This document shows positions 10,140 to 64,000 of a DNA stretch of 64,000 nt, in pieces; position 1 is the first letter of the stretch; each line of letters starts with the position of its first letter. The notes below the pieces were generated by a model. It did not search any database. It saw only the letters and a list, made by a program, of their open reading frames with translations, and was not told the DNA's origin. The DNA is from Chloroflexia bacterium (GTDB taxonomy: Bacteria > Chloroflexota > Chloroflexia > DTKN01). Location of the stretch: contig DAOTVY010000064.1 of assembly GCA_034436115.1 (NCBI GenBank), positions 21,235-85,234 of the forward strand. The letters run 5' to 3'. The translations under genes were made by a program, and so were the position numbers.

Positions 10140-10541
10140 GGCGGTGCCCACGGCCCAGCCGACGCTCGAGCCCAATGGTGGGGGGCCCAGAGCGCGTTTT
10201 TCTGGCGGGGGTTCAGGGGGAAGGCGGTTGCCGTGTCAGACCAGTGCCGCCAACGGCGTGGGGTAGCCCGGTCTGTGGGCGGTTGTTCCCTCCTGGCAGA
10301 GGGCTGGCCTCGGAGCGTCCGGGGAACCGGGGCAGCTCGCGCCCCTCGGCCGGCGCCCGTCAACGGGGCCGGGAAATGCCCGCTTCCCTGGAGGGCCTCG
10401 AATTCCCACTACCGGGGGCCGAGGCAACGCTGGCGCCTACCTTCGGGCGGAGGAAGCCTTGGGACAAGCAGGGCCTTGCGCCGGGGGCGAAGGCGATGGC
10501 AGGCGCATGGCGTACCCTGGGGATGTGGGTGTTCAGGGTGG

Positions 10542-10570
10542 TTGCCATTAGGTTCAGGCTGTGCTATACT
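10542..10570 (+). promoter_or_regulatory. Promoter TTGCCA-17-TATACT for the NarL-type two-component operon
   Basis: Hexamers with 17-nt spacing about 25 nt upstream of the GAGGAAA RBS and ATG 10596. Confidence 0.5.
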
Positions 10571-10595
10571 GAGACCAGAACGTGAGGAAACGCCC

Positions 10596-11651
10596 ATGGC
10601 TGGGTTGCTACAAGCCGAGGGCCCGGCGGAGAAAAGCGGCTACCTGACGCAGGCCGAGACGCTGGCGGAAAGCTTCTGCAGCAAATTGCGCGATCTCCTG
10701 GAGGCCGCGACCCGGCAACGGAATGCCCTGGAGGCGGAGCTCAGGCAGCTGGCCCGCCTGCGGGACGAAGTCGAAGTACGGCTGCGGTTCGCTCGCGAGG
10801 GAAACGCGCCCGCCGATCCCCAACTCCAGGAGAAACGAGACGCCCTCTGGGCAAACGAGCAACGGATACGCCAGGCGCTGGCGGAAGCCGAAGAGCATAC
10901 ACGGCGGCTCGAGCTGTTGTTGCGTCACGTCCAGATGAGCGCCCGTTCGCTTCGCTCGTCGCCGGCGGGCCAGCCGTACGACCCCTGGGAGATGGCCCTG
11001 CGTTCGCAGGCACTCTACGGGCGGGAGGCAGAGCGCAACGCCTTAGCGCGCGAGGTGCATGACGGGCCCGCGCAACTGTTGGCTTCCTTGGCATTGGGGC
11101 TGGAACAGCTGCGGGGGCACCTTTCTCCGCAGGAGGTTGCGCGAGAGGGCCTGGAGCGCCTGTTGCGGGATGTCCGTTGGGGCCTTCAGGAAGCGCGGCG
11201 CCTGATCTACGAATTGCGTCCATCTCCGTTCTCTGGGGAGACGCTGGGCAAGCAGGTCGAACGGTATGTTCACGATTTGGAAGCGGCCTATGGAATTGCG
11301 GTAGAGCTCCGTTGGGCGGATGCGCCGCGCGAGTTAACCCAGGAAGAGAAGGTGGCTGTTTACCGGATCGTCCAGGAGGCGTTGCGCAATGCCCACCGGC
11401 ACGCGCGCGCGAGTCGCATTGCTGTGGAAGCGTTTGCTGCGCCCACCGGCTGGACGGTCCGGGTCGTAGACGATGGCATCGGATTCGACCCTGACCTCCT
11501 TGGACAACAGCAGGATCATTGGGGCATCCGAGGGATGCGTGAGCGTGCCCAGCTGATCGGAGCGCAGCTCCGGATCGAGAGCCGTCGGGGCGAAGGGACG
11601 GCCGTGGTGCTGCATCTCCCTGAGGTGCCCGGTTCCACGGAGAGAGGATGA
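10596..11651 (+). CDS. Cytoplasmic sensor histidine kinase, NarL/DegS-type (HisKA_3 + HATPase_c) with N-terminal coiled coil
   Basis: H-box EVHDGPAQLLASL and an HATPase C-terminus. The ATG start follows GAGGAAA, and a TTGCCA-17-TATACT promoter lies upstream. The ORF-track extension to 10233 is Arg/Gly/Pro-rich junk. Confidence 0.8.
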   Translation: MAGLLQAEGPAEKSGYLTQAETLAESFCSKLRDLLEAATRQRNALEAELRQLARLRDEVEVRLRFAREGNAPADPQLQEKRDALWANEQRIRQALAEAEEHTRRLELLLRHVQMSARSLRSSPAGQPYDPWEMALRSQALYGREAERNALAREVHDGPAQLLASLALGLEQLRGHLSPQEVAREGLERLLRDVRWGLQEARRLIYELRPSPFSGETLGKQVERYVHDLEAAYGIAVELRWADAPRELTQEEKVAVYRIVQEALRNAHRHARASRIAVEAFAAPTGWTVRVVDDGIGFDPDLLGQQQDHWGIRGMRERAQLIGAQLRIESRRGEGTAVVLHLPEVPGSTERG

Positions 11652-11652
11652 G

Positions 11653-12390
11653 ATGATCCGAGGGAGCGAAGTGCTGACGGTTCTGATTGTCGACGATCAT
11701 CCGTTGTTCCGTCAAGGCGTCCGGGCGGTGTTGGAACGGGAGCCCGATCTGCGGGTCGTTGGCGAGGCCGGGGATGGACAGGAAGCGATCCGACTGGCGG
11801 AGCAATTGGCCCCCGACGTGGTGTTGATCGACATCAGCCTGCCCGGCCTGAACGGATTGGAAGTGACCCGGGTGATCAAACGCCGTCAGCCGCAGGCGGG
11901 CCTGATCGTGCTGACGGTCTACGAGGACGATGAGCAGCTGTTCAATGCGATCAAAGCCGGGGCTTCGGCCTATTTCTCCAAGGACATCCAGCCGCAGCAA
12001 CTGGTGCAGGTGATCCGGGAGGTTGGTCGAGGCACTTATCTGATCGACGAGCACGTGTTTGGCAAGCCTCACATCGCGGCCCGGGTGCTGAACCAGTTCC
12101 GGGAACTAGCGGCCGCGGAGGAAGAATTGGGCTCCATTTTCTCCCCGCTGACCAGCCGGGAGATCGAAATCCTCGATTGCATGGCCCAGGGGTTAACGAA
12201 CAAAGAGATCGCCGATCGGCTCTACATCAGCAGCCAAACGGTCAAGAACCACGTCACCGCGATCCTGCGCAAGCTTCAGGTGAACGACCGTACGTCTGCA
12301 GTCATCTATGCGCTGCGCCGCGGCTGGATCCGGGTCGCGGCACCAGGTCCGGCGGAGATTTCCCCGAGCAGCGAAGCCGGGGATGAATGA
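11653..12390 (+). CDS. NarL/LuxR-family response regulator (REC + LuxR HTH)
   Basis: [12 protein letters not shown] receiver signature and C-terminal [36 protein letters not shown]. Confidence 0.9.
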
Positions 12391-12416
12391 GGCACAGCCG
12401 AACGAAGGAGGGTTCC

Positions 12417-13346
12417 ATGCTAGTCATCGCCGAGAACATCCAGATCCGTGCCGTTCGGGTACAGCAGGCGATCGAGAATCGGGATGGGTCGTTCTTCCAG
12501 GAGTTGGCCCGACGGATGGTCGCTGCTGGAGCCCATGTGATCGACCTGAACATCGGCCCTCGGAAGAAAGACGGTCCAGAGGTGATGGCCTGGCTGGCCG
12601 GGACGATCGCAGAGGTTGTTGACGTGCCGCTCTCCTTTGACACGACCAACCTGGACGCGATCGAGGCCGGCCTGAAGGCAGTGCCCGGCCGTAAGCACAT
12701 CTTGAACCCGGGCTCGATCGCAGGCAACCCCGAGCGGACGGAGCGCGTCTTCTCCCTGGCCGTGGAGCACGGGGCAGGGGTGGTGGCGCTGACGCTGGAG
12801 CAGAGCGGCATGCCGGCCACTGCGGATGCCCGGATCAACATCGCGATGGAGCATCTGATCCCGGCGGCGCAGCAGTACGGCCTTCCGATGGAAGATCTGT
12901 ACATCGACCCCGTGGTGCTCACGGTCAAGGGGATGCAGGAGCACCCTAAGGAGGTCATCGAGGCCGTTCGGGCGTGCAAGTACCTCTGTGAACCGGCCCC
13001 CAGGACGACCTGTGGGCTTTCGAACGTTTCGAACGGCGTGCCCCACGAGAACCGGAGCCTGATCAACCGCACCTTCCTGGTGATGCTCCTGGCTGCTGGC
13101 CTGGATTCGGCCATCTGTGATCCCTTCGACCGGCAACTGATGGAGTGGCTGCGGATCGTAGAAGAGCGCGATGCCAGCACACCGGTGGGGCGCGTCCTCT
13201 TGCGCCTGTACGATGCCATCCAGGGCATGGGCGAGTTCGGACCGCAGGATGTGGACCTATCCGATCCAGCACAGGCGGAGATCTACAAGACGGTGCGCGT
13301 GCTGCGTAACGAGGTGATCTTTGCCGACGACTACCTGCGCTTCTAG
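12417..13346 (+). CDS. Pterin-binding domain methyltransferase (MtrH/AcsE-like methyl-tetrahydrofolate:corrinoid methyltransferase family; DHPS-like fold)
   Basis: A GAAGGAGGG RBS precedes the ATG. Motifs VIDLNIG, LSFDTTN and HILNPGS are consistent with a pterin-binding TIM barrel. Confidence 0.65.
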   Translation: MLVIAENIQIRAVRVQQAIENRDGSFFQELARRMVAAGAHVIDLNIGPRKKDGPEVMAWLAGTIAEVVDVPLSFDTTNLDAIEAGLKAVPGRKHILNPGSIAGNPERTERVFSLAVEHGAGVVALTLEQSGMPATADARINIAMEHLIPAAQQYGLPMEDLYIDPVVLTVKGMQEHPKEVIEAVRACKYLCEPAPRTTCGLSNVSNGVPHENRSLINRTFLVMLLAAGLDSAICDPFDRQLMEWLRIVEERDASTPVGRVLLRLYDAIQGMGEFGPQDVDLSDPAQAEIYKTVRVLRNEVIFADDYLRF

Positions 13347-13363
13347 CTCCGAGGAGGGGTGGA

Positions 13364-13750
13364 TTGACCGGTGAGGCGGTAGCCCGGCGGATTGCTGCCC
13401 GGGTACGGGAAGGGAAACTGCCCTGTGTGGAAGCCTTTGCCCTTGCCGAGGAACTCGGGATTCCGCCAGCCGAGGTGGCCGCTATTGCGGAAGCGGAAGG
13501 GTACCGCATCGGGTGGTGTCAGTTGGGCCTGTTTGGGGGCCGGGGGAAAGAGGCCCCGGCTGTCGCTGCGGTCGAGGTGCCCTTGCCGCTGCGCGAGCAG
13601 ATCCAGGCGCATTTGGAGGATGGGCATCTGCCCTGTCCTTCGGCGTGGGGGATCGCCCGGCGCTTGGGCGTGGAACGGATCGAAGTGGGCCGAGCCGCGG
13701 ATGCCCTGGGGGTGCGGATCAGCCGGTGTCTTCTGGGCTGTTTCTCCTGA
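13364..13750 (+). CDS. Small protein composed of two ~55-aa internal repeats, each with a conserved Cys (unknown function)
   Basis: Repeat 1 is GKLPCVEAFALAEELGIPPAEVAAIAEAEGYRIGWCQLGLF. Repeat 2 is GHLPCPSAWGIARRLGVERIEVGRAADALGVRISRCLLGCF. GAGGAGGGG RBS. Confidence 0.5.
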   Translation: MTGEAVARRIAARVREGKLPCVEAFALAEELGIPPAEVAAIAEAEGYRIGWCQLGLFGGRGKEAPAVAAVEVPLPLREQIQAHLEDGHLPCPSAWGIARRLGVERIEVGRAADALGVRISRCLLGCFS

Positions 13751-13767
13751 GGCCGGGGCTTGCGGGG

Positions 13768-14706
13768 CTAGTAGGTTCGCTCCACGACACGCCGGGCGAT
13801 CTCCTCGAGCGGGGAGCGTTGTTCCGGCTCGGTGACCACCTGCAGGTGTTTGAGGGCCTGTTCATAGTAGCGTAGCGCTTCTTCCCGGGCCAGTCGAGGC
13901 CCGGAGGAGTTCTGTACCCGCTGCAATACGGCCGCGAATTCCTCTGGCGGGAAGGGCTCCCCAAAACGGGCCACAGCGCGCCGGAGCAGGCCGTCGCTAT
14001 CGTCGTGGGCGACGGCATAGATCAGGGGCAGGGTGATCAGACCTCGGCGGAGGTCTCCCCCCGCCGGTTTGCCCAGGAGATGCTCGTCGCCCACATAGTC
14101 GAGCACGTCGTCCACGATCTGGAAGGCCATGCCGAGGGCATAGCCGAAAGCGCCCATGGCGGCCACGGTTTCCTCCGCCGCCCCGCCGCAGATGGCGCCG
14201 ATGCGCCCGGCTGCGCCAAAGAGGGAGGCCGTCTTCCGGCCGATCTTGAGGCGATAGCTTTCTAACGCCACCTCAAGCGGTTCCACCTGATCCACGGTGC
14301 TGATTTCCCCCTCGCAGATGGCCACAGCGGCTTCGGCGATCGCTTCCAGCACGCGGATCTCTCCCGTGAGCGCAATGGCTCGCGCGGCCAGGGCAAAGAG
14401 GTAGTCTCCGACCAGCACCGCGGCGTCGTGGTGCCACTTCTCATGGATCGTCGGCTGGCCACGCCGGTGGGGCGATTGGTCGATCAGGTCGTCGTGTACC
14501 AGGCTGGCGGCGTGCACCAGTTCCACTGCCGCTGCGGCATAGACCGTCTGGGGGGCAATCGGCCGGCCGCCCAGCTGAGCCGCGCGGAAAACCAGCGCGG
14601 CACGCAGCCTTTTCCCTCCGGCAGAGAGGAGGTGGCGGGCCGGCGCGGAAAGCCATAGCACAGGGGATTCCACCAGTCCCTGCATATAGGCTTCCAGGCG
14701 GGCCAT
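13768..14706 (-). CDS. Polyprenyl diphosphate synthase (trans-isoprenyl diphosphate synthase family)
   Basis: Both Asp-rich motifs are present (LVHDDLID and FQIVDDVLD). The start is taken at MARLEAYMQG (312 aa). The 653-aa ORF-track version is a spurious upstream extension. Confidence 0.85.
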   Translation of the reverse strand: MARLEAYMQGLVESPVLWLSAPARHLLSAGGKRLRAALVFRAAQLGGRPIAPQTVYAAAAVELVHAASLVHDDLIDQSPHRRGQPTIHEKWHHDAAVLVGDYLFALAARAIALTGEIRVLEAIAEAAVAICEGEISTVDQVEPLEVALESYRLKIGRKTASLFGAAGRIGAICGGAAEETVAAMGAFGYALGMAFQIVDDVLDYVGDEHLLGKPAGGDLRRGLITLPLIYAVAHDDSDGLLRRAVARFGEPFPPEEFAAVLQRVQNSSGPRLAREEALRYYEQALKHLQVVTEPEQRSPLEEIARRVVERTY

Positions 14707-14759
14707 GGCTTCTTCGATGCCGGTCAAGGAGTCCGCTCCTGCCACGCCTTTGGCCCTCC

Positions 14760-15074
14760 CTAAGGCATCACGGCAACCGTACGCGCTGCGCTCCAGAGGC
14801 GCTCCAGCTGGTAACGGTCGCGCTGGGCCAGGTTGAAGATGTGCAGCACCACAGAGCCAAAGTCCATCAGGATCCAGCCGCTTTCCGCCGTGCCCTCCAC
14901 ACGGCGCGGGGGCGCGTTTTCCTGTTCCGTCCTCTCCAGCACTTCGTCCGCGATGGCTTCCAGTTGACGCTCGCTCTCGCCGCTGCAGATCAGGAAATAG
15001 TCGGCGATCAAGGAAATGCCCCGCAGGTCCAGCAACACGATGCGGCTGGCTTTCTTGCCAGCCACCCACTCCAT
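14760..15074 (-). CDS. rsfS: Ribosomal silencing factor RsfS (Iojap family)
   Basis: ISLIADYFLICSGESERQLEAIADEV...DFGSVVLHIF...RYQLERLW matches RsfS. The start is uncertain: the ATG (MEWV) lacks an SD, while an in-frame ATC sits 6 nt after a perfect GGAGGAGG. Confidence 0.75.
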   Translation of the reverse strand: MEWVAGKKASRIVLLDLRGISLIADYFLICSGESERQLEAIADEVLERTEQENAPPRRVEGTAESGWILMDFGSVVLHIFNLAQRDRYQLERLWSAARTVAVMP

Positions 15075-15272
15075 CAATCGGTTGGCCAGTTCCCGAGGTT
15101 CGATCGTGTGCCTCCTCCGAGATCTGTTCGGGCACATAGGGAACGCCCGACCCCCAAAGGTCGGTTCGCAGCGGATTATACACCAAAGGAAACGCGGCGG
15201 CAACTGGCGCTTGCAGCGCGTGGAGGGGTATTGTACAATAGCCCACCAGGTAAAGACCGAAGGAGGATAACG

Positions 15273-15485
15273 ATGGCCCAGGTGCCGCAAGAGATTTCCC
15301 TGGAAGAAGCCTGGAAGCTGGCCATCCAGCGGGAAAAGGAAGCCCAGGAACTGTATCGCGACCTGGCGGAGCGGGTCGCGAGCGCGGAAGCGCGCGCCCT
15401 GTTCGCGTTCCTCCTGGAGCAAGAAAAGGAGCACGAGCGGAGGCTGCAGGACGAATTCGATCGCGCTTTTGCTCCAGAGTGGTAG
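15273..15485 (+). CDS. Small ferritin/rubrerythrin-like helical protein (70 aa)
   Basis: GAAGGAGGATAACG RBS. EEAWKLAIQREKEAQELYRDLAE...EQEKEHERRLQDEF resembles a rubrerythrin/DUF-type di-helix. Confidence 0.45.
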   Translation: MAQVPQEISLEEAWKLAIQREKEAQELYRDLAERVASAEARALFAFLLEQEKEHERRLQDEFDRAFAPEW

Positions 15486-54630: not shown

Positions 54631-56031
54631 ATGGCCACTCCCTTACGGGTGCTGATTCTAGAGGATCGGGAGGCGGATGCGGAGCTTCTGGCGCTGGAGC
54701 TGAGCCGGGCCGGCTTTGCCCCCGAGTGGACCCGGGTAAGCAGCGAAGCGGAGTACCTGGCCGAGTTGGAGAAGGGCTATGATGTGATCCTGGCCGACTA
54801 CCGCCTGCCCCAGTTCGACGGGCTACAGGCGCTTCAGTTGATGCAGGAGCGCGGCCTGGATATCCCCTTTGTGCTGGTCTCGGGGACGATCGGTGAGGAT
54901 CTGGCCGTGGAGGCGATGAAGCGGGGAGCGGCCGACTACCTGCTCAAGGACCGGCTGGCACGCCTGGGAGCGGCGGTTGCCCGCGCTCTAGAAGAAAAGC
55001 AACTGCGCGAGGCCAGGCAGCGAGCGGAGGCATCGTTGCGCGAGGCCGAGGCGCGCTACCGCACCCTGTTCGAGGGGATGCCCATCGGGCTATACCGCAC
55101 CAGTCCAGACGGCCGTATCCTGGAGGTGAACGCGGCGCTGGCCCAGATGCTGGGGTTGCCGGACCGGGAAAGCGTGTTCGCGCACTACCGGCGTGCCGAG
55201 GAATTCTACGTCCATCCGGAAGAACGGGCGCGGTGGAAGGCTTGGATCGAGCGCACGGGTGTGGTTCGGCAGTATGTGGCGCAGTGGCGGCGGGCCGACG
55301 GCTCGGCCATCTGGGTGAGGGAGAGCGCGCGGGCGATCCGCGACGGGCGGGGGGAGACGGTCTACTACGACGGTGCGGTGGAGGACATCACCGCGCTGGT
55401 GCTGGCGGAGGAGGAGCGGCAGCGCACCCTGGAGCGGCTGCGGCGGATGGTGGAGGGGACGGTGCGCGCCCTGTCGGCCACGGCGGAGTATCGGGATCCC
55501 TACACGGCTGGCCACCAGCGACGGGTGGCGCGGCTGGCGGCGGCGATCGCCCGTGAGATGGGGCTTTCCCCCGAACAGGTCGAAGGGGTGGAGGTGGCCG
55601 GCATCGTGCACGACATCGGCAAATCCACCGTGCCTACGGAGATCCTGAGCAAACCCGGGCGCCTTTCGCCCGAGGAGATGGCCCTGGTACGGATGCATCC
55701 GAGGGCGAGCTTCGAGATCTTGCGCAAGATCGAGTTCCCCTGGCCGGTGGCGCTCGTTTCCCTGCAGCACCACGAACGGCTCGACGGTTCGGGCTATCCG
55801 GAGGGACTGGCTGGGGAACAGATCCTCCTGGAAGCGCGCATCCTGGCGGTGGCCGACGTGGTGGAGGCGATGTCCTCCCACCGTCCTTACCGGGCAGCGC
55901 TGGGGCTGGAGCGAGCTTTGGAGGAAGTCCGGACCCAGCGCGGCATCCTCTTCGAGCCGCAGGCTGTGGACGCCTGCCTTCGCCTCTTTGCGACGGGGTT
56001 CAAGCTCGATGAGCCCAACGGGCGGGACTGA
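54631..56031 (+). CDS. Response regulator REC-PAS-HD-GYP (putative c-di-GMP phosphodiesterase)
   Basis: VLILEDREADAELL receiver, a PAS core and the HD-GYP signature HDIGKS...HHERLDGSGYPEGL. Confidence 0.8.
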   Translation: MATPLRVLILEDREADAELLALELSRAGFAPEWTRVSSEAEYLAELEKGYDVILADYRLPQFDGLQALQLMQERGLDIPFVLVSGTIGEDLAVEAMKRGAADYLLKDRLARLGAAVARALEEKQLREARQRAEASLREAEARYRTLFEGMPIGLYRTSPDGRILEVNAALAQMLGLPDRESVFAHYRRAEEFYVHPEERARWKAWIERTGVVRQYVAQWRRADGSAIWVRESARAIRDGRGETVYYDGAVEDITALVLAEEERQRTLERLRRMVEGTVRALSATAEYRDPYTAGHQRRVARLAAAIAREMGLSPEQVEGVEVAGIVHDIGKSTVPTEILSKPGRLSPEEMALVRMHPRASFEILRKIEFPWPVALVSLQHHERLDGSGYPEGLAGEQILLEARILAVADVVEAMSSHRPYRAALGLERALEEVRTQRGILFEPQAVDACLRLFATGFKLDEPNGRD

Positions 56032-56159: not shown

Positions 56160-57017
56160 ATGTATCGCCTGGATGCCCTGGACCGCCAGATCATTCTACA
56201 TTTGCAGCGCGACGGGCGTATTCCCTATGTAGAGTTAGCTCGTTTGGTAGGGGTAAGTGAGGCTACTGTCCGGAGGCGGGTAGAGCGTCTGATTGCGGAA
56301 GGGGTGATCGAGGTTGTCGCCTGTGTCGAGCCGCGCAAGGTGGGGCTGGGAGTCGAAGCGCTGGTCTACCTCCAGGCAGAGTTGGACAAGCTGACGCACA
56401 TCGGCCAGACCCTGGCGGCCATGCCGGAGGTGCGGGAGGTGATTTACACTTCCGGGGCGCACGATCTGGTGCTGCGGGTGGCGCTGGCCTCGAACGATGA
56501 CCTTTTGCCCTTCCTGACCCGCCGGGTGGCGACGATTCCGGGAGTCAAGGCGACCCAAACCTCCTACGTTCTGCAGACGGAAAAGCACATCCACGATTGG
56601 CAGCTGCCGGAGCGGCCGGTGGCTCCGCAGCCATCTCAGGCCCGGCCCTTGATCCTGGTGGTGGATGACGACGCCGACTTTTGTGCTGCGGCCAGCATGG
56701 TGCTGGAAGCTGAGGGCTATCAAGTGATGGCCTCCTGCAATGGGCGAGAGGCAAAGGCCATATTGCAGGAGCAGACGCCAGCGCTGATCCTGCTGGATCT
56801 CATGATGGAGACGCCACTGGCCGGGCTGGAGGTATTGCAGGCCGTACGGGACGACCCACGTCTCTGTGGGATCCCTGTGCTGGCCATTTCGGCTATTCGC
56901 TCGAGCGAATGGGCAAGCGCCATCCCATCGCCGGAACAGCTGCCTTTCGACGGCTTTGTGGACAAGCCGATCGAGCCAGGGCTGCTCCTGGAGAAGGTGC
57001 ACCGACTGGTCGGCTAG
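56160..57017 (+). CDS. Lrp/AsnC-family transcriptional regulator (HTH + RAM domain) fused to a C-terminal receiver-like domain
   Basis: The N-terminus LDRQIILHLQRDGRIPYVELARLVGVSEATVRRRV is an AsnC HTH. The C-terminus LILVVDDDADF...ILLDLMME...KPI is REC-like. Confidence 0.75.
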   Translation: MYRLDALDRQIILHLQRDGRIPYVELARLVGVSEATVRRRVERLIAEGVIEVVACVEPRKVGLGVEALVYLQAELDKLTHIGQTLAAMPEVREVIYTSGAHDLVLRVALASNDDLLPFLTRRVATIPGVKATQTSYVLQTEKHIHDWQLPERPVAPQPSQARPLILVVDDDADFCAAASMVLEAEGYQVMASCNGREAKAILQEQTPALILLDLMMETPLAGLEVLQAVRDDPRLCGIPVLAISAIRSSEWASAIPSPEQLPFDGFVDKPIEPGLLLEKVHRLVG

Positions 57018-57035: not shown

Positions 57036-58754
57036 GTGCAAATCGAGCGCTACCATTTCCCGGAGGATCGTTTCTACGACCGCCAGCACAATTGGGTGCG
57101 AATCGAAGACGGCCTGGTCGTTCAGGGATTGTCCGACTATGCCCGCCAGTCCAGAGGGCCGGTGCTTTGCCTGGATCTGCCTCGCCCTGGGCGATGGGTC
57201 GCGCGGGGTGAACCGTTGACAGTTCTGGAGGCGGAGCAAGGGATCATCCGCGTCCTTGCGGCTGTCAGCGGCGAGGTGGTGGCGATCAACGAGCAGCTAC
57301 GCGACAATGCCGGCCTGGTGTACGAGGATCCCTACGAAGCGGGCTGGCTGGTGAAACTCTGTCCCACCTCTCCCGAGGAGCTCGCGCAGTTGACCCGCCC
57401 GGACGATCCGGCATTCAAGGAGTGGTTCCTGGTCTGCCTTTCTGGGGAGATCTCGCGCCAACTGGGCCGCCCGGAACGGGAGGTGCTCTCCCTGCGGCGG
57501 GACCTGGAGCGTGCCTATCATCGGCTGGAAACGCTTTACCAGATCGGCCGGGCCACGACCTCGACGATCCATCTGGAGCAAGTGCTGCAAATGGTCGTTC
57601 GTCTGACTGCCGAGGCGCTTGACGCCAAGGGATGCTCCATTCGCCTTCTGGACGATAGTGGCCAAATCTTGCGGATTGTAGCGGCCTGGGGTCTGAGTGA
57701 TCAGTATCTGCAGAAGGGACCGGTGGAGGTACGGCACAGCCTGATCGATCAGGAAGCACTCCGGGGCAAGCCGGTGATCGTGCTGGAAGCGCCTTTGGAT
57801 CCCCGGTTCCAGTACCCGGAAGAGATCGAGCGAGAGGGCATCTGTTCCGTCCTGTGCTGTCCGCTGATGGTACGGGGGCAAGCCATTGGCGTGATCCGGA
57901 TCTACAGCGCGGCCTGCTATCGCTACGGCCAGGAGGAAGCCGACTTCTTGATGACGATTGCCAGCGAGGTGGCGGTGGCGATCGCGAACGCGATGGCCTA
58001 CCGGAAGCTGGAAGAGATCGACCGGGCCAAGTCCCAGTTTGTCCTCACGGTTACCCATGAGCTTCGCTCGCCTGTGGCCACGGTACAGAGCCTCCTGCGG
58101 GTCATTTCGGGCGGGTATGCAGGCCAGGTATCCTCCAAGCAAAAGGAACTGATCGAGCGGGCCGAACGCCGGATCCTCTTCCTGCAGCAGCTGATCGACG
58201 ACCTTCTGGACCTCGCTGCGGGGAAAACGGAACATCTCACGGAGACCCCGCGACCGGTGACGGTGAATCCGGTTGTGACCAAAGTGGTCGCCCAATTGCG
58301 CCCGGTGGCCGAGGAAAAGTCGTTGGATCTGCGGGTCTATGTACCCCACGAGGCCCTTTCCGTCCTCGCTGTAGAGGACGGAATGGAGCGCATCGTGGTC
58401 AACCTGGTGGGCAATGCGATCAAGTACACGCTTCCCGGGGGGCGCGTCGAGGTCACCCTGGAGCGCCGCGGGAACGAGGCCGTGTTGATCGTGTCCGATA
58501 CCGGCATTGGTATCCCGCAGGATGCGCTGCCCCATCTGTTCGAGGAGTTCTTTCGGGCGGAGAATGCCCGGGCGATCGAGCGGGAAGGTACCGGCCTGGG
58601 CCTTTCGATCGTCAAGAACCTGGTCGAGCGGTACGGAGGCAGGATCGCAGTGGAAAGCCAGCTGGGCCAAGGGTCGACCTTCACCGTGCGCTTCCCGCTC
58701 CTGGGGACCGGAACGGTCGATGGCGGAATTCGTAAGGAAACGTCATTATCATGA
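57036..58754 (+). CDS. Histidine kinase with N-terminal glycine-cleavage H-protein (GcvH)-like domain lacking the lipoyl-lysine, followed by GAF, HisKA and HATPase_c
   Basis: The N-terminus YDRQHNWVRIEDGLVVQGLSDYA...AVSGEVVAINEQL...EDPYEAGWLVKL matches the GcvH fold, with ESVK replaced by EAEQ. H-box TVTHELRSPVATV. Confidence 0.75.
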   Translation: MQIERYHFPEDRFYDRQHNWVRIEDGLVVQGLSDYARQSRGPVLCLDLPRPGRWVARGEPLTVLEAEQGIIRVLAAVSGEVVAINEQLRDNAGLVYEDPYEAGWLVKLCPTSPEELAQLTRPDDPAFKEWFLVCLSGEISRQLGRPEREVLSLRRDLERAYHRLETLYQIGRATTSTIHLEQVLQMVVRLTAEALDAKGCSIRLLDDSGQILRIVAAWGLSDQYLQKGPVEVRHSLIDQEALRGKPVIVLEAPLDPRFQYPEEIEREGICSVLCCPLMVRGQAIGVIRIYSAACYRYGQEEADFLMTIASEVAVAIANAMAYRKLEEIDRAKSQFVLTVTHELRSPVATVQSLLRVISGGYAGQVSSKQKELIERAERRILFLQQLIDDLLDLAAGKTEHLTETPRPVTVNPVVTKVVAQLRPVAEEKSLDLRVYVPHEALSVLAVEDGMERIVVNLVGNAIKYTLPGGRVEVTLERRGNEAVLIVSDTGIGIPQDALPHLFEEFFRAENARAIEREGTGLGLSIVKNLVERYGGRIAVESQLGQGSTFTVRFPLLGTGTVDGGIRKETSLS

Positions 58755-58770
58755 CGGAATCCGTCTTTTT
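58752..58770 (+). terminator. TGACGGAATCCGTC palindrome (copy 2 of 3) followed by TTTTT; a weak intrinsic terminator or operator
   Basis: Begins with the kinase stop codon. A 5-6-bp stem (GACGG/CCGTC) plus a T5 run. Confidence 0.45.
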
Positions 58771-58791: not shown

Positions 58792-58820
58792 TTGACAAAT
58801 GTCCCGGATTGTGCTATGAT
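58792..58820 (+). promoter_or_regulatory. Promoter TTGACA-17-TATGAT for the HdrD-like operon
   Basis: Consensus hexamers. Flanked and overlapped by direct repeats TTGTCCCAGGATT / ATGTCCCGGATT. Confidence 0.55.
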
Positions 58821-58856: not shown

Positions 58857-60209
58857 ATGGCGCTAAAGACGTTCGACCTCACCCGCGAGATGTTGGACCA
58901 TGCCTTCCCGGATGTTGTTGCTCCGGATAAGGAAAGGCTGCTGACTTGCATCCAATGTGGCACCTGTACGGCTTCCTGTCCAACCGCCTATGCGATGGAT
59001 TACACGCCTCGCCAGCTGTGGCGCCTGATTCAGGTCGGTCTGCGCGAGGAAGTCCTTCTGAGCAATTCGTTTTGGCTTTGTGCGGCCTGTTATGCGTGCA
59101 ACACGCGTTGCCCTCGCGGCATCCCCACCATGGAGACGATGCTAGAGCTGAAGGTGCTGGCATCGCGCGAACGGGGCGTGATGCCGCTTCCGCTGCGAGA
59201 GCGCTGCCAGCTGGTGGCGGGCACGCACAACGTAGCCGGAGAAGACAACGCCCTCCGGCTCTCCTGGGCGCTCAACCTGCCGGGGGGAAGTGGACGGTAT
59301 ACCGGGCCGCGCCGGGCAGAACTTGCCTACTTTGTTGGGTGCTATGCGGCCTTTTTCCCGCTGGCTTTCGGTGTGCCCCAGGCGATGGTGCACTTGCTCG
59401 AGCATCTGGGGCTTTCGTTCACCACGCTGGGCACGGAAGAGTGGTGCTGTGGCTACCCTTTGCTCGTCGCCGGCCGGCGCGAGGAGGCGGCAGCGCTGGC
59501 GCGTCACAATCTGGAGGTAGTGGAGCAAACGGGCGCCTCACGTCTGGTTACGGCCTGTGCGCATTGTTACCGTGTCTGGCGGGAAATCTACCCCCAGCTC
59601 CTGCCCGGCCGGAGCATTCCTCCGGTGGAGCACTCGAGCACCCTGCTCCTGGAGGAGTTCACTCGCCAGGGGATTGCTCCTTTCCCCGTGGAGGCCGTCG
59701 TCACCTTCCACGACCCCTGCGATCTAGGCCGGCAGGCAGGGCTGTACGAGCCGCCGCGGAGGCTTTTGGAAATGATCCCGGACCTGAAGCGGATCGAGAT
59801 GGCCAACTCGGGCGAGGGGGCCATCTGCTGTGGCGGGGGAGGGAACCTGCCCTGGTTGCGGGACGATGTGGTCATGGAACTGGGCCGTCGGCGGCTTGGA
59901 CAGGCGCTCGATGTACGCGTGAGCGCCTTGATCACCGCTTGCCAGCTATGCCGTCATACCTTAAGTCGGACGGCTTACCGCTGGGGGGCGCGTTTGCGGG
60001 TTTACGATCTGGTCGAGCTGGTTTGGAGCGCTCTCTCGGCACAGCCGCTCGACATTCCTGGAGCGAGGTGGCCCACTGTGCGCCATCCGGGCGCCTCGTC
60101 CCTTGGCGCCTGTTCCGAGCCGCCTTCTGGGTTCACCGGAGGGCCGCGCCCTCCGGAGGGTGGGGAACAGACCGCGCAGGCGGGCGATGATCGGGGGCCG
60201 GCCATCTAG
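58857..60209 (+). CDS. HdrD-like fused Fe-S oxidoreductase (N-terminal HdrC-like 2x[4Fe-4S] + two CCG domains; GlpC/LutA/DsrK-type)
   Basis: CIQCGTCTASCP and CAACYACNTRCP, then CCGYP...CAHC and ICCGGGGN...CQLC. Confidence 0.75.
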   Translation: MALKTFDLTREMLDHAFPDVVAPDKERLLTCIQCGTCTASCPTAYAMDYTPRQLWRLIQVGLREEVLLSNSFWLCAACYACNTRCPRGIPTMETMLELKVLASRERGVMPLPLRERCQLVAGTHNVAGEDNALRLSWALNLPGGSGRYTGPRRAELAYFVGCYAAFFPLAFGVPQAMVHLLEHLGLSFTTLGTEEWCCGYPLLVAGRREEAAALARHNLEVVEQTGASRLVTACAHCYRVWREIYPQLLPGRSIPPVEHSSTLLLEEFTRQGIAPFPVEAVVTFHDPCDLGRQAGLYEPPRRLLEMIPDLKRIEMANSGEGAICCGGGGNLPWLRDDVVMELGRRRLGQALDVRVSALITACQLCRHTLSRTAYRWGARLRVYDLVELVWSALSAQPLDIPGARWPTVRHPGASSLGACSEPPSGFTGGPRPPEGGEQTAQAGDDRGPAI

Positions 60210-60291
60210 TGCGGGTCGAGCCACCGATGGTTTGGAGTCGTGGAGGATACAGGGCTCTTTCCGCAAGAAGTTCTGGAGGAGGTAAGCTACC

Positions 60292-60879
60292 ATGGCCCTT
60301 CAGTCGTTCAACCTGACCCGGGAGATGCTTGACCACTCCTTCGCCGAAACGGTAGCCCCGGACCGGGAGAAGCTGCTCACCTGCATCCAGTGCGGCACTT
60401 GCACCGCTTCCTGTCCTACCGCTTACGCGATGGAGTACACGCCGCGGCAGCTCTGGCGGCTGATCCAGGTGGGGCTACGCGACGAGGTGCTGCAGAGCGA
60501 TACCTTCTGGCTCTGCACGACTTGCTACTCGTGCACCATCCGCTGCCCGCGCGGCATCGCGGTCACCGAAACCATGGCCACGTTGAAGCGGCTCTCGGTT
60601 GCCGAGGGCGTGGAGAAGAAGGACCGTAGCGCGCGCTTCTACGAAAGTTTCATGGAAGTGGTCCACGATACCGGGCGTATGCACGAGACGCTCTTGATGT
60701 TGCGCTGGCTGCTGAAGACGAATCCGCTGCAGGCCTTTTCCTTCGCCCGGCTAGGCCTGGCGCTCCTGCGCAGGGGGAAGATGCCGCTGCGGCCCACGCG
60801 CATCCGAGGGCTGGACCAGATCTGGGCGATGTACGACAAGGTGCGCGAGATGGAGCAGAAGGAGGAGATCCTGCGATGA
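60292..60879 (+). CDS. HdrC-like 4Fe-4S protein (copy 2)
   Basis: The first ~85 aa are about 85% identical to the N-terminus of the upstream HdrD-like protein. CIQCGTCTASCP and CTTCYSCTIRCP. Confidence 0.8.
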   Translation: MALQSFNLTREMLDHSFAETVAPDREKLLTCIQCGTCTASCPTAYAMEYTPRQLWRLIQVGLRDEVLQSDTFWLCTTCYSCTIRCPRGIAVTETMATLKRLSVAEGVEKKDRSARFYESFMEVVHDTGRMHETLLMLRWLLKTNPLQAFSFARLGLALLRRGKMPLRPTRIRGLDQIWAMYDKVREMEQKEEILR

Positions 60880-61754
60880 AGTACGCTTACTATCCCGGCT
60901 GCACGTTGGAAACGGCTGCGCGCGAGTACGATGTCTCAGCCCGCGCGGTCTTTCGGGAATTGGGAGCGGAACTCGCTCCGATCCCCGACTGGAGCTGCTG
61001 CGGTTCGTCTCCAGCCGAATCGGTGGATTACCTGCTTTCCATCGCCCTGCCTGCCCGGAACCTGGCCCTGGCCGAGCAGATGGGCCTCGACATCATCGCG
61101 ACCTGTAGCTCCTGTTACCTGAGCCTCTTCAAAGTGGAGAAACATTGTCAGCGGGATCCTTCCTTGAGGGCTCGTTTGAGCGAGATCCTGGGCGCAGCCG
61201 GCCTGACCTACCAGGGCAAGGTACGGGTTCGCCACATGCTCGACGTCATCGCCAACGATATCGGTCCGGAAAAGATCCAGGCCCGGATGCGGCGCAGCCT
61301 AAGAGGACTCCGCGTGGTGCCCTACTACGGTTGCCAGACGGTGCGCCCGTTCATGGAGTACGATGGTCCCGATCTTCCCGAGTCGATGGACCGGCTTCTG
61401 GCGGCGATGGAAGCTGACGTCGTGCCCTATCTCTATAAGACGCGCTGCTGCGGTGGCATTCTGATCACTTCGACCAGAGACGTGGGCATTAAGCTGGTGT
61501 CCGACCTCCTGGCCGAGACCGATGGGGCCGACTGCGTCGTGACCGTTTGCCCTCTATGCCAGATGAACCTGGATGCCTACCAGGCAGAAGTCTCCCGGAA
61601 ACTCGGGCGCCGGGTGAACATTCCCGTGCTCTACCTGACGCAGCTGATGGCTCTGGCTTTCGACCTTCCGGATAGCGAGATCCTGCTTCAGAGGAACATT
61701 GTCTCGCCCAAGCCGGTGCTGGAAAAGCTGGGCATGCTCGGAGGGGGACGGTAG
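60876..61754 (+). CDS. HdrB-like CCG-domain protein (copy 2)
   Basis: YYPGCTL...CCGSS...CSSC and YYGCQTVRP...CCGG...CPLC. ATGA overlap with hdrC2. Confidence 0.85.
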   Translation: MKYAYYPGCTLETAAREYDVSARAVFRELGAELAPIPDWSCCGSSPAESVDYLLSIALPARNLALAEQMGLDIIATCSSCYLSLFKVEKHCQRDPSLRARLSEILGAAGLTYQGKVRVRHMLDVIANDIGPEKIQARMRRSLRGLRVVPYYGCQTVRPFMEYDGPDLPESMDRLLAAMEADVVPYLYKTRCCGGILITSTRDVGIKLVSDLLAETDGADCVVTVCPLCQMNLDAYQAEVSRKLGRRVNIPVLYLTQLMALAFDLPDSEILLQRNIVSPKPVLEKLGMLGGGR

Positions 61755-61800
61755 AGCTCCGGGTAGGCACGCGGAGGAGCCTGTTCCTCCGGCGGTCGGG

Positions 61801-62205
61801 ATGAATCGGATGAAACTGCGGGAGATTGTCGAGATCGTCGAGGGCACGCCGGTGTTTGAAACCGACCTGGATCTCGAGATCGGTTGCGGTGCTGCAGCGG
61901 ATCTGATGAGCGATGTGCTGGCGCTGGTGGAGCCGGGTGCCGTGTTGCTGACAGGGCTGTGTAATCCGCAGGTGGTGCGTACGGCGGAAATGGCCGACAT
62001 CACGGCCATCGTCTTTGTCCGCGGCAAGCAGCCGATGCCGGAGACCATCGCCCTGGCCAAGGAGAAGGGCATTCCGCTGGTGACCACCGCGCTTCCGATG
62101 TTCGAAGCCTGCGGACGGCTTCATCAGGCCGGCCTGCGGAGCTGCGATATCTCCTGTCGCATTCCCTGGCGGACCCCGGATGGCCCGGACGAGCTATCCC
62201 AGTAG
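61801..62205 (+). CDS. DRTGG-domain protein
   Basis: IGCGAAADLMSDVLA...VLLTGLCNPQVVRTAEMADITAIVFVRG...PLVTT matches the DRTGG fold seen on phosphotransacetylase N-termini. Confidence 0.6.
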   Translation: MNRMKLREIVEIVEGTPVFETDLDLEIGCGAAADLMSDVLALVEPGAVLLTGLCNPQVVRTAEMADITAIVFVRGKQPMPETIALAKEKGIPLVTTALPMFEACGRLHQAGLRSCDISCRIPWRTPDGPDELSQ

Positions 62206-62211
62206 GTTGCG

Positions 62212-63150
62212 ATGGCCGAGATCACCCGTCTTCAGGAACTTGCCTACGAGGTCAAGATCGGAGAGGTGATGACGAAGGACGTAGTCACGGTAACGCCTCA
62301 GAATACCATGGCCGAGCTCCGGGTGATCCTGCGCGACCACCGCATTTCCGGTGCACCTGTCGTGGAAGGCGGGGAACTGGTGGGGATCATCAGCGTCGAG
62401 GACCTCATCAAGGCACTGGCGGCCGGCGAGATGGATGCCCAGGTGGGGACGAAGATGACTCCTCGCCCGGTGACGGTTCGGGCCGACGAATCGGTCGTGA
62501 TGGCGATCCGCTACTTCAACCGACATGGGTACGGCCGTTTCCCTGTGGTGGATCGCGCAGGGAAACTGGTCGGCATCCTCACCCGGGGGGATATCATCCG
62601 CGGGCTGCTCAAGCAACTGGAGATGGAATACCATCGCGAGGAGGAGCTGCGCTATCGGTTCAGCCACATCTTCGAAGAACTGATTTCCGATCTCACCAGC
62701 ATTACCTTGCGTTGCCGGGTGGAGGCTCAGGACTTTGACCGTGCCGGTGAGGCCTCCAGCAAGATCAAGCGGGCGCTCACCCGCCTGGCGGTTGCCCCGC
62801 AGCTCGTCCGGCGGGCGGCGATCGTTACCTACGAACTGGAGATGAACATCATCATCCACACCACGGCAGGCGGCGAGATCCTGGCCGAAATCCAGCGCGA
62901 CCGGATCATTATCCGGGCGATCGACAGCGGTCCGGGCATTCCGGATATCGAGCAGGCGCTGCAGCCGGGCTTCTCCACCGCTCCGGACTGGGTGCGAGAG
63001 ATGGGGTTTGGGGCCGGCGTGGGGCTGAACAACGTGCAGCGTTGTGCGGACGAGATGTTGATCGAGTCGCCGGGTGCCCAGTGGACCTCTGTGAAGGTGG
63101 CGATCTACCTGAATCGGGAGTGCCTGGAGGCCGGGAAAGCGGCGGCCTGA
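62212..63150 (+). CDS. CBS-pair + GHKL (anti-sigma-factor/RsbW-like HATPase) protein
   Basis: Two CBS motifs (VMTKDVVTV..., ISGAPVV...LVGIIS; MTPRPVTV...GKLVGILTRGDII). The C-terminus AIVTYELEMNIIIHT...IRAIDSGPGIP...GFGAGVGL is HATPase_c_2-like. Confidence 0.7.
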   Translation: MAEITRLQELAYEVKIGEVMTKDVVTVTPQNTMAELRVILRDHRISGAPVVEGGELVGIISVEDLIKALAAGEMDAQVGTKMTPRPVTVRADESVVMAIRYFNRHGYGRFPVVDRAGKLVGILTRGDIIRGLLKQLEMEYHREEELRYRFSHIFEELISDLTSITLRCRVEAQDFDRAGEASSKIKRALTRLAVAPQLVRRAAIVTYELEMNIIIHTTAGGEILAEIQRDRIIIRAIDSGPGIPDIEQALQPGFSTAPDWVREMGFGAGVGLNNVQRCADEMLIESPGAQWTSVKVAIYLNRECLEAGKAAA

Positions 63151-63167
63151 TGCAGGGAGGCCGGGCG

Positions 63168-63515
63168 ATGAAGCTGGAAACGGTGGTTCGGGAACTTGCC
63201 CTGGAGGTCCGCAGCGCCGCAGGGAATCTGGGGCGCGAGGTCACCGGCGGTTACGCCGCGGACCTGTTGAGTTGCGTCATGGCTCGGGCTCAGCCCGGGA
63301 ATATCTGGGTTACGCTCCAGGGCCATCCGAACATCGTTGCCGTGGCCAGCCTCCTGAACCTGGCGGCCATTGTGGTGACCGAGGGCGTTGCACCTGACCC
63401 GGCGACCCTTTCCAAGGCCGAGGAGGAAGGCATCCCGATCCTGACCACACCGCTCACCACGTATACCGTGGTGGGAAGGCTCTTTGGATTGGGCATCCGG
63501 GGGCCGGAACGGTGA
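63168..63515 (+). CDS. DRTGG-domain protein (paralog 2)
   Basis: ATG after AGGGAGG. TGGYAADLLSCVMARAQPGNIWVTLQGHPNIVAVASLL...ILTT. Confidence 0.65.
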   Translation: MKLETVVRELALEVRSAAGNLGREVTGGYAADLLSCVMARAQPGNIWVTLQGHPNIVAVASLLNLAAIVVTEGVAPDPATLSKAEEEGIPILTTPLTTYTVVGRLFGLGIRGPER

Positions 63516-63550
63516 AGGCGATGTCTTTTTGGGAGCGGCAGCGGTAGGGC

Positions 63551-64000
63551 ATGCGCGAATTGAGCCTCCATATCCTAGACGCCCTGCAGAATGCGCTGGA
63601 GGCGGGTGCCAGCCGGGTTGAACTGGTGATCGAAGAGGATCCGAAAGCGGATCGATTGCACATTACCATCCGAGACAACGGTCGCGGGATGAGCGCAGAG
63701 CAGCTTGCTCGGGCTTTCGACCCCTTCTATACCACCCGCAAGACGCGCCACGTCGGATTGGGCCTCCCGCTCTTCAAGGCGGCGGCGCAACGTTGCAATG
63801 GCGATGTCACCCTCATCTCCGAGGAAGGCAAGGGGACAACGCTGCAGGCGACGTTTCGGTACAGCCACATCGACCGTGCCCCGATGGGCGATCTGCCGGG
63901 CACGTTGTTGGCCTTCCTCTTGAGCGGGGGATGCGACCTGGCTTACCGCCACCGGGTGGGCGACCGGGAGTTTGCCTTCGATACCGCGGAGATCCGTGCC
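63551..64000 (+). CDS. GHKL-type ATP-binding protein (HATPase-like; 3'-truncated by the window end)
   Basis: N-box LHILDALQNALEAGAS, G1 RDNGRGM and G2 GLGLPL. Open to the window end. Confidence 0.5.
   Translation, partial: MRELSLHILDALQNALEAGASRVELVIEEDPKADRLHITIRDNGRGMSAEQLARAFDPFYTTRKTRHVGLGLPLFKAAAQRCNGDVTLISEEGKGTTLQATFRYSHIDRAPMGDLPGTLLAFLLSGGCDLAYRHRVGDREFAFDTAEIRA

Follow-up and report, generated by a model that had tools for sequence, protein, structure and literature searches.

The window analysed here is a 64,000-nt stretch of contig DAOTVY010000064.1 from a Chloroflexia bacterium, and its last part, positions 58857-64000, carries seven genes. Three encode proteins that resemble heterodisulfide reductase (Hdr) subunits, and four smaller genes follow, for a DRTGG-fold protein (DRTGG-1), a CBS pair fused to a GHKL ATPase (CBS-GHKL), a second DRTGG protein (DRTGG-2) and a second GHKL ATPase (GHKL-2) that is truncated by the window end. 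An earlier inspection of the letters without database searches, referred to as the sequence-only reading, had proposed this gene content. An open reading frame (ORF) check placed all seven genes on the + strand at the positions first proposed, and profile searches with Pfam and NCBIfam, together with fold comparison, confirmed every one of them (Table 1). The four small genes belong to a conserved cassette; both its core, DRTGG-1 plus a CBS-gated GHKL protein of the SpoIIAB type, and its dedication to cytoplasmic NAD(P)H/ferredoxin-linked hydrogenase and Hdr complexes are well supported.

Table 1. Coordinates of the features described, in window numbering unless given for L001, the related contig in which the operon was followed past the window end.
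Feature	Position	Strand	Evidence or remark
HdrD-like iron-sulfur protein, HdrC-like Fer4 dicluster N-terminus plus two CCG domains	58857..60209	+	CCG E 1e-32
HdrC-like 4Fe-4S dicluster protein	60292..60879	+	TIGR03290 98 bits, cut-off 160
HdrB-like protein, two CCG domains	60876..61754	+	TIGR03288 198 bits, cut-off 345
DRTGG-1, small stand-alone DRTGG-fold protein, invariant ADLMSDVL motif	61801..62205	+	Pfam DRTGG (PF07085) 25.5 bits, cut-off 25.2, borderline
CBS-GHKL, CBS pair fused to SpoIIAB/RsbW-type GHKL ATPase or serine kinase	62212..63150	+	CBS E 1.4e-33, HATPase_c E 1e-7
DRTGG-2, paralogue of DRTGG-1, invariant D32 and S35 (D-L-x-S)	63168..63515	+	Pfam DRTGG 36.1 bits
GHKL-2, stand-alone histidine-kinase-type ATP-binding (CA) domain	63551..64000, cut by window end	+	HATPase_c E 2e-21
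HdrA N-terminal part, in-frame UGA	L001 13903-14751 (window-equivalent 66114-66962)		
NuoF-GltD fusion, 1038 aa	L001 15742-18858		Complex1_51K, NADH_4Fe-4S plus GltD/NfnB-like Fer4_20, Pyr_redox_2
589-aa protein, HoxU/NuoG-type N-terminus plus C-terminal two-thirds of HdrA	L001 18870-20639 (window-equivalent 71081-72850)		Fer2_4 (N-terminus)
Sigma-70-like promoter, TTGACA-17-TATGAT with TG	58792..58820	+	11/12 consensus positions, best in 17 kb; prediction
Terminator-like hairpin plus T run	58753..58765	+	Consensus match only; directly 3' of GcvH-GAF histidine-kinase gene
Glycine-cleavage H-protein (GcvH)-like domain fused to GAF-HisKA-HATPase	57036-58754	+	
AsnC/Lrp-type HTH fused to receiver domain	56160-57017	+	Upstream of operon
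Receiver-PAS-HD-GYP protein	about 54631-56031	+	Upstream of operon

CBS-GHKL appears from its domains and motifs to be the core sensor-kinase of the cassette. Its N-terminal half is a canonical Bateman module that Pfam CBS matches twice, with a fold resembling CBS pairs solved with AMP, ADP, ATP, Ap4A or SAM. Both canonical adenosine-binding G-h-h-S/T-x-x-D motifs are kept and conserved (GIISVED with S61/D64, GILTRGD with T124/D127), which agrees with the adenylate-binding role predicted for this pair in the sequence-only reading. The kinase that the same reading had likened to RsbW/SpoIIAB is likewise borne out by fold and motifs. The fold of the GHKL half is nearest SpoIIAB/RsbW and not histidine-kinase, GyrB or Hsp90 domains, and alignment reveals an E..N box and a lid motif, DxGxGIPDIExAxQPxFxTxP, in common with SpoIIAB. 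Residues E208, N212, D238/G240/G242 and G265-G271, which make up the N-box E..N, G1 DxGxG and G2 GxGxG, are 100% conserved across 81 loci. The protein is 62-87% identical across phyla, metagenome-assembled genomes (MAGs) of Deltaproteobacteria type included, and this indicates strong constraint. Its relatives form 3895 clusters at E <= 1e-5, bear only the names 'CBS domain-containing protein / anti-sigma regulatory factor', and carry in most cases a precomputed match to HATPase_c_2 (PF13581); the closest named relatives are Chloroflexia MAGs.

The assignment of DRTGG-1 was settled by its fold, since the profile score is borderline. Its AlphaFold2 (AF2) model (pLDDT 85, pTM 0.80) has as its best Foldseek match 2ioj, the Pfam DRTGG structure AF1212 (E 1e-7, TM 0.72/0.80), followed by the DRTGG domain of CBS-pyrophosphatases (CBS-PPases; 3l2b, 3l31) and the N-domain of HPr kinase/phosphorylase (HPrK/P; 1knx, 1ko7). 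The Foldseek search revealed no DNA-binding fold in this model. About 8000 protein clusters match DRTGG-1, named 'hypothetical' or, by the Joint Genome Institute (JGI), 'predicted transcriptional regulator'; the homologues begin as the window protein would if its true start were the ATG at 61810 (MKL...), which may be the case. DRTGG-1 and DRTGG-2 are 39% identical (E 7e-21) and share a D-L-x-S motif in which S37 of DRTGG-1 (within ADLMSDVL) is 98% conserved and D32 and S35 of DRTGG-2 are 100% conserved. The AF2 model of DRTGG-1 places this motif in a loop or short helix of lower confidence. AF1212 reads MSPQS at the same position and keeps the name-giving T-G-G-D-R, where the cassette proteins have T-G-L-C-N-P-Q, and this marks D-L-x-S as a feature of the cassette subfamily.

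A redox-sensing role had also been suggested at the outset, and DRTGG-1 offered a candidate site: residues 115-119 (window 62143-62157) read C-D-I-S-C and, with C29 and C104, are nearly invariant among close relatives. The C-terminal CxxxC occurs in only 4 of 73 loci, however, and CDISC and C29 are kept in close relatives only, so a family-wide iron-sulfur or redox-sensing site was rejected and the suggestion is left without support. The cysteines may still form a metal or redox site specific to this lineage.

The system was expected to run on past the window, and it does. L001 is the fetched part of a 78-kb JGI contig encoding CBS-GHKL; of the 11789 bases in its overlap with the window, 5 differ, and a window position equals its L001 position plus 52211. 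Beyond DRTGG-2, L001 encodes in order GHKL-2, a PHP phosphoesterase, a 374-aa PP2C-like protein, the N-terminal part of HdrA, NuoE, a ferredoxin, a NuoF-GltD fusion, a 589-aa protein and MvhD (FlpD). An exact-match scan of metagenome contigs for an extension of L001 gave no match, and the genes further 3' were taken from sibling contigs, which have the L001 gene order and a 589-aa protein 96% identical to that of L001. There the operon ends with MvhD and the small (324 aa) and large (494 aa) [NiFe]-hydrogenase subunits, after which comes a convergent gene. Taken together, these gene contents place the four small genes midway along the operon of an Mvh-type [NiFe]-hydrogenase / HdrA / NuoEF / HdrBC(D) assembly.

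GHKL-2 is complete in L001 (11340-11906), where its 188 aa comprise a HATPase_c domain and a poorly conserved tail. No phospho-accepting DHp/HisKA domain was found in the full-length protein; its best matches in the PDB are the CA domains of YycG, KinB and ZraS, and its N, G1 and G2 boxes are all conserved. The description of the small genes as two paralogous DRTGG/GHKL pairs is therefore half right, since the DRTGG proteins are paralogues but the GHKL proteins, one SpoIIAB-like and the other histidine-kinase-CA-like, are only 24% identical over 71 aa. The PHP phosphoesterase (255 aa in L001; Pfam PHP 33.6 bits) retains its metal ligands H11, H13, D45, H46, E71, H157, D209 and H211 with at least 98% conservation in 69 loci. 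PHP and GHKL-2 form one ORF of 407-449 aa, measured stop to stop, in four Planctomycetota loci (L049, L064, L065 and L080, about 11210-12560), a gene fusion that points to a functional link between the two proteins.

To learn how widely the cassette occurs, one genome per species was scanned, and it was found in at least 594 bacterial species. From these, 80 loci were fetched as the best matches or closest relatives, a sample that may not represent the whole family, and L001 proteins were mapped onto their stop-to-stop ORFs. The 80 loci come from Chloroflexota, Desulfobacterota, Planctomycetota, Bacteroidota, Cloacimonadota, Nitrospirota, Acidobacteriota, Gemmatimonadota, Spirochaetota, Fidelibacterota and TA06. 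Recurrence in 80/80 loci and more than 10 phyla is not what a chance juxtaposition would give. For 43 loci at least 8 kb is available on either side, and these well-flanked loci contain DRTGG-1 in 42 cases, DRTGG-2 in 41, PHP in 40 and GHKL-2 in 37. The most constant neighbours are NuoE with NuoF (39/43) and the 2Fe-2S ferredoxin (39/43); Hdr genes are frequent and not obligatory, with at least one in 21 of the 43. The sequence-only reading had attached the small genes to the Hdr-like enzymes, which holds for the window, where co-transcription is predicted, but not as a general rule. It had also named no precedent next to Hdr genes; in genomes, Hdr-linked versions do exist in Planctomycetota, Bacteroidota, Acidobacteriota, Cloacimonadota and others. 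Same-strand [NiFe] small or large subunits accompany the cassette in at least 30 of the 80 loci and at least 24 of the 43, counts that are lower bounds because in the window's own lineage the subunits lie beyond the 10-kb flank.

Inspection of gene order reveals a few recurrent arrangements. The commonest, in 24 loci, is DRTGG-1 > CBS-GHKL > DRTGG-2 > PHP > NuoE > GHKL-2, and the usual place of GHKL-2 is between nuoE and the gene of the 2Fe-2S ferredoxin (Fd), which makes the full commonest order PHP > NuoE > GHKL-2 > Fd > NuoF. In 13 loci PHP is followed by GHKL-2 and a NuoG-N/HdrA fusion, usually after HdrC-HdrB-[HdrA-N/NuoE]-Fd-NuoF. The order of the window, DRTGG-2 > GHKL-2 > PHP > PP2C-like, is found in 4 loci, L001 counted. 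The tandem DRTGG/GHKL arrangement from which the sequence-only reading started is thus peculiar to this lineage; in other loci DRTGG-2 and GHKL-2 are separated by PHP, and often also by NuoE.

Four loci (L009, at 9563-15393, and L014, L016 and L020) reduce the cassette to DRTGG-1 plus CBS-GHKL, without DRTGG-2, PHP or GHKL-2. This minimal pair lies directly 5' of a NuoEF-free operon of group-3 type that encodes a Fer4_22 protein, a FAD/NAD subunit, the [NiFe] small and large subunits and HycI, a setting that suits a portable regulator more than a subunit dedicated to the enzyme. In loci of the L009 type the genes after the [NiFe] operon encode a response regulator and a GAF histidine kinase.

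We also considered whether the cassette hides a sensory [FeFe]-hydrogenase. A regular expression for the H-cluster motifs matched 2 of the 80 loci only (L013 and L077), and the idea was dropped. In L001 and in L085 no H-cluster (Fe_hyd_lg_C) domain was found, and the 'BfuA-like' proteins of other loci are, by eye, NuoG/FdhA-like or HdrA fusions; those of Anaerolineae-type loci look NuoG- or FdhA-like and have no H-cluster signature motifs. Elsewhere, in L007 (19431-20903), visual inspection after MvhD identified an FrhB-like iron-sulfur protein and a formate-dehydrogenase-like molybdopterin N-terminus, with no [NiFe]-hydrogenase there. In some lineages the cassette and its Hdr/NuoEF core may, judged from gene content, be fed by formate.

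The enzyme genes of L001 combine modules of several known complexes. HdrA is split into two genes, which are separated by nuoE (2Fe-2S_thioredx E 8e-50), the gene of the 121-aa 2Fe-2S ferredoxin and nuoF-gltD. The in-frame UGA of the N-terminal part lies in the motif DKTFPTLDCST-U-ILGPK, at what we take to be the usual cysteine/selenocysteine (Cys/Sec) position of HdrA sequences, and is followed 3' by a hairpin with a GGUC apical loop (dG -20 kcal/mol, z -1.7). The domain composition of the NuoF fusion suggests that its GltD-like module provides an NADPH site beside the NADH site. As in Bfu-type operons, the genes predicted for NuoE-like and NuoF-like proteins are adjacent and accompanied by a subunit that appears to be NuoG-N/HydA-N-like. 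Mvh-Hdr, NiFe-HydABCSL (Bfu) and BamDEFGHI-type systems share with the present operon HdrA, MvhD, [NiFe] subunits, NuoE/NuoF/NuoG-N modules and CCG proteins; they differ from it in that HdrA is here split around nuoE/fd/nuoF with a putative Sec and NuoF is fused to a GltD-like domain. A combination of HdrA and Bfu modules has been proposed for Bam-Bfu (PMC9304861).

The Hdr-like proteins of the window have the CCG and Fer4 domains listed in Table 1, and all three score below the NCBIfam equivalog cut-offs for CoB-CoM heterodisulfide reductase, the best match of the HdrD-like protein being TfrB (140 bits, cut-off 385). 'Hdr-like' is therefore the right description, and the names hdrC2 and hdrB2 given at first sight are not established. 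Over their first ~290 nt the hdrD-like gene (58857-59150) and the hdrC-like gene (60292-60585) are, estimated by eye, about 75-80% identical, and an alignment of the two spans 345 columns with a mean column identity of 85%. The HdrD-like protein seems to be a second copy of HdrC joined to two CCG domains.

The last 4 nt of the hdrC-like gene are also the first 4 of the hdrB-like gene, and the gaps between genes are otherwise 6-46 nt. Promoter and terminator calls are consensus matches. The predicted promoter, its sequence checked by eye, lies ~37 nt 5' of the HdrD-like ATG and is the probable operon promoter by its match to consensus, and the terminator-like hairpin before it is likely to end the preceding transcription unit; such terminator-like sites are not more numerous in the region than in shuffled sequences. 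The short gaps and the single strong promoter-like site fit a transcription unit beginning with the HdrD-like gene, with predicted co-transcription of the cassette and the Hdr-like genes. An Rfam search of L001 identified no riboswitch or other RNA family.

Upstream of this operon lies a signalling block composed of a PAS/GAF histidine kinase, a response regulator, the receiver-PAS-HD-GYP protein, the AsnC-HTH/receiver fusion and the GcvH-GAF histidine kinase. The AsnC/Lrp-receiver fusion, the receiver-PAS-HD-GYP protein and the two histidine kinases are candidate transcriptional regulators of the operon; comparison with related loci shows that these upstream regulators are not conserved together with the cassette. 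Aligned to Thermus thermophilus GcvH (1onl), the GcvH-like domain reads EAEQ at the lipoyl-lysine position ESVK and so cannot be lipoylated; it may instead serve as a sensor domain. The GcvH-GAF kinase was examined as a conserved partner of the cassette and rejected, since it was not found beside it in the 80 other loci.

Comparison with known systems brings out what is distinctive in the cassette. Like SpoIIAB-SpoIIAA-SpoIIE and RsbW-RsbV-RsbU, it has a kinase with the characteristic ATP-lid motif, small co-encoded partners and a phosphoesterase or PP2C-like gene. In contrast to those modules, the partners have a DRTGG and not a STAS fold, no sigma factor is present, a CBS pair forms the N-terminal part of the kinase, PHP stands in for PP2C as the conserved phosphoesterase, and the genes are embedded in redox-enzyme operons. 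In domain searches neither the 21-kb locus nor the conserved cassette yielded a STAS protein, a sigma factor or an HTH/DNA-binding domain. That is to say, the partner switching proposed in the sequence-only reading stands as to the kinase, which is itself of that family and is accompanied by PHP and a weakly matching PP2C-like gene, but lacking a STAS antagonist and a sigma factor the cassette is not classical partner switching.

The CBS-DRTGG-CBS insert of family II (CBS-) pyrophosphatases unites the same two domain types, and both the DRTGG and the CBS parts of the cassette resemble 3l2b/3l31. In those enzymes the module is known to be regulated by AMP/ADP versus ATP/Ap4A. The cassette differs in having its domains on separate polypeptides with a kinase-type GHKL attached, and its DRTGG proteins no longer have the G-D-R of the name-giving motif but have acquired ADLMSDVL. 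HPrK/P, a metabolite-controlled serine kinase with an N-terminal DRTGG-like fold (1knx, 1ko7; Pfam Hpr_kinase_N), differs in that its kinase domain is of the P-loop and not the GHKL class, its domains are fused and its substrate is HPr.

A described counterpart was reached through a likeness to sensory [FeFe]-hydrogenase loci that the sequence-only reading had pointed out, which proved a good lead. The Halanaerobium hydrogeniformans operon Halsa_1862-1871 encodes HydA, NuoF, a ferredoxin-like protein, a histidine kinase, NuoE, PHP, an Fe-S hydrogenase, an Fe-S protein, an anti-sigma Ser/Thr kinase and an ORF (PMC4237134). Its skeleton, anti-sigma kinase ... PHP, NuoE, histidine-kinase-like protein, ferredoxin, NuoF, HydA, matches the commonest cassette order. 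The present locus differs in lacking an H-cluster protein and in having DRTGG-2 in place of the HydS-like and FeS genes. Compared with [FeFe] HydABC/HydS/HfsB loci in general, the kinase here has a CBS pair and the enzymes are [NiFe]/Hdr/NuoG-like; a histidine-kinase-like ATPase also flanks TamHydS (PMC8163306). The present locus is a [NiFe]/Hdr-linked, CBS-bearing and HydS-free version of the Halanaerobium-type cassette. A survey of the Bfu family calls such genes 'processing or regulatory', undecided between the two, and leaves them unlabelled (PMC9304861). In the literature mentioning DRTGG, we found no account of stand-alone DRTGG proteins next to kinases and none relevant to hydrogenase, and literature searches returned no link between partner switching and hydrogenases and no electron-bifurcating operon described with a 'histidine kinase-like' gene under those terms.

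We tentatively favour, as the most economical, a reading of the cassette as an adenine-nucleotide-sensing kinase switch that acts on DRTGG proteins and is dedicated to cytoplasmic hydrogenase/Hdr complexes. From the gene content, folds, ATP- and metal-binding motifs, conservation and neighbourhood described above, we infer its ligand, its kinase-substrate pairing, the role of PHP and its output as follows. The cassette, made up of DRTGG-1, CBS-GHKL, DRTGG-2, GHKL-2 and PHP (with the PP2C-like protein in the window's lineage), would be an accessory to the enzyme operon. Its CBS pair would bind an adenine nucleotide (AMP, ADP, ATP or an Ap4A-like compound) and thereby set the state of the fused SpoIIAB-like GHKL domain. 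This domain would in turn bind one or both DRTGG proteins and probably phosphorylate the invariant serine of the D-L-x-S loop. The switch would be reset by PHP, together with the PP2C-like protein in the window's lineage and possibly with GHKL-2. As its output, the switch would act directly and post-translationally on the enzyme complex, setting its activity, its direction or its state of assembly; a post-translational output is the most likely one because the cassette has no DNA-binding or sigma component and travels with structural genes of several enzyme types.

Several observations weigh against the kinase switch. We know of no GHKL serine kinase that uses a DRTGG substrate, and the model of DRTGG-1 does not have a STAS fold. 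The window's CBS-GHKL scores 17.8 bits for HATPase_c_2, below the cut-off of 27.4. The N-terminus of PHP resembles pAp phosphatase, TrpH/RNase AM and TrlF, which are nucleotide or RNA phosphoesterases, and not protein phosphatases. The match of the 374-aa protein to SpoIIE/PP2C is weak (E 8e-4 and 19.8 bits, where the cut-off is 25) and appears in 2 of 4 orthologues, and a four-sequence profile of it run against the PDB returned nothing useful. Its gene is moreover restricted to the lineage, with 3 of the 80 loci besides L001 and sibling contigs and 2 of the 43 well-flanked loci. Strict co-localisation within structural operons would fit assembly factors equally well.

This last point leads to an assembly or maturation role, in which the GHKL proteins are ATP-driven chaperones, the DRTGG proteins scaffolds and PHP a cofactor-processing phosphoesterase, all serving to build the flavin/iron-sulfur NuoEF-HdrA-hydrogenase complex. 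The interleaving of cassette and structural genes, above all GHKL-2 between nuoE and the ferredoxin gene, speaks for it, as do the nucleotide-phosphoesterase character of PHP and the 'processing or regulatory' label of the Bfu survey (PMC9304861). We consider it unlikely nonetheless, because the fused GHKL domain resembles the signalling kinases of SpoIIAB/RsbW type and neither Hsp90 nor MutL, CBS sensor modules typically serve allosteric regulation, and the minimal pair also precedes NuoEF-free [NiFe] operons that have their own maturation protease, HycI. The SpoIIAB/RsbW fold and motifs that count against chaperones would suit classical transcriptional partner switching, with CBS-GHKL as an anti-sigma factor for a sigma factor or other regulator encoded elsewhere, the DRTGG proteins as its antagonists and operon expression as the controlled quantity. 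The JGI name on DRTGG-1 homologues and the two-component and AsnC-type regulators just upstream in the window lean the same way. With no sigma factor, STAS or HTH protein in the 21-kb locus or the conserved cassette, no DNA-binding fold in the DRTGG model and no conservation of the upstream regulators with the cassette, such transcriptional control is distinctly unlikely.

The resemblance of PHP to pAp phosphatase, RNase AM and TrlF-type N-termini also admits a nucleotide circuit free of phosphorylation. The CBS and GHKL domains would then only bind, PHP would degrade the signal (pAp, Ap4A or a short oligonucleotide) and the DRTGG proteins would relay the bound state by protein contact, as in the CBS-DRTGG-CBS insert of CBS-PPases. 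CBS and DRTGG domains do occur together as an adenylate/Ap4A-regulated module in CBS-PPases (3l2b, 3l31), and AcuB-type CBS adaptors are reported to respond to Ap4A (PMC13039410). Binding alone, however, would not need the catalytic motifs (N-box Glu/Asn, G1 and G2) that are invariant in both GHKL proteins, and the invariant serine in both DRTGG proteins suggests a modification site; we accordingly give this circuit a low probability. Returning to the kinase switch, a more specific form of it would be a partner switch free of both STAS and sigma proteins, in which the DRTGG proteins are the phospho-acceptors of the CBS-gated SpoIIAB-like kinase and an adenylate reading directly gates the direction or activity of electron-bifurcating hydrogenase/Hdr complexes. 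In this strict form the proposal is rather unlikely.

In anaerobes it is the electron-bifurcating hydrogenases and Hdr complexes that determine how H2, ferredoxin and NAD(P)H are balanced. Descriptions of their operons name 'kinase', 'PHP' and 'anti-sigma' genes in passing and offer no analysis of them. One cassette found across phyla, with a defined core of DRTGG-1 and a CBS-gated SpoIIAB-like kinase and with S37 and S35 as named candidate serines, provides starting points for testing. The kinase switch would also be the first function proposed for the stand-alone DRTGG proteins of this cassette family. If true, the STAS-free partner switch would be a widespread and unrecognised layer of post-translational control in anaerobic H2/ferredoxin metabolism, spanning more than 10 phyla.

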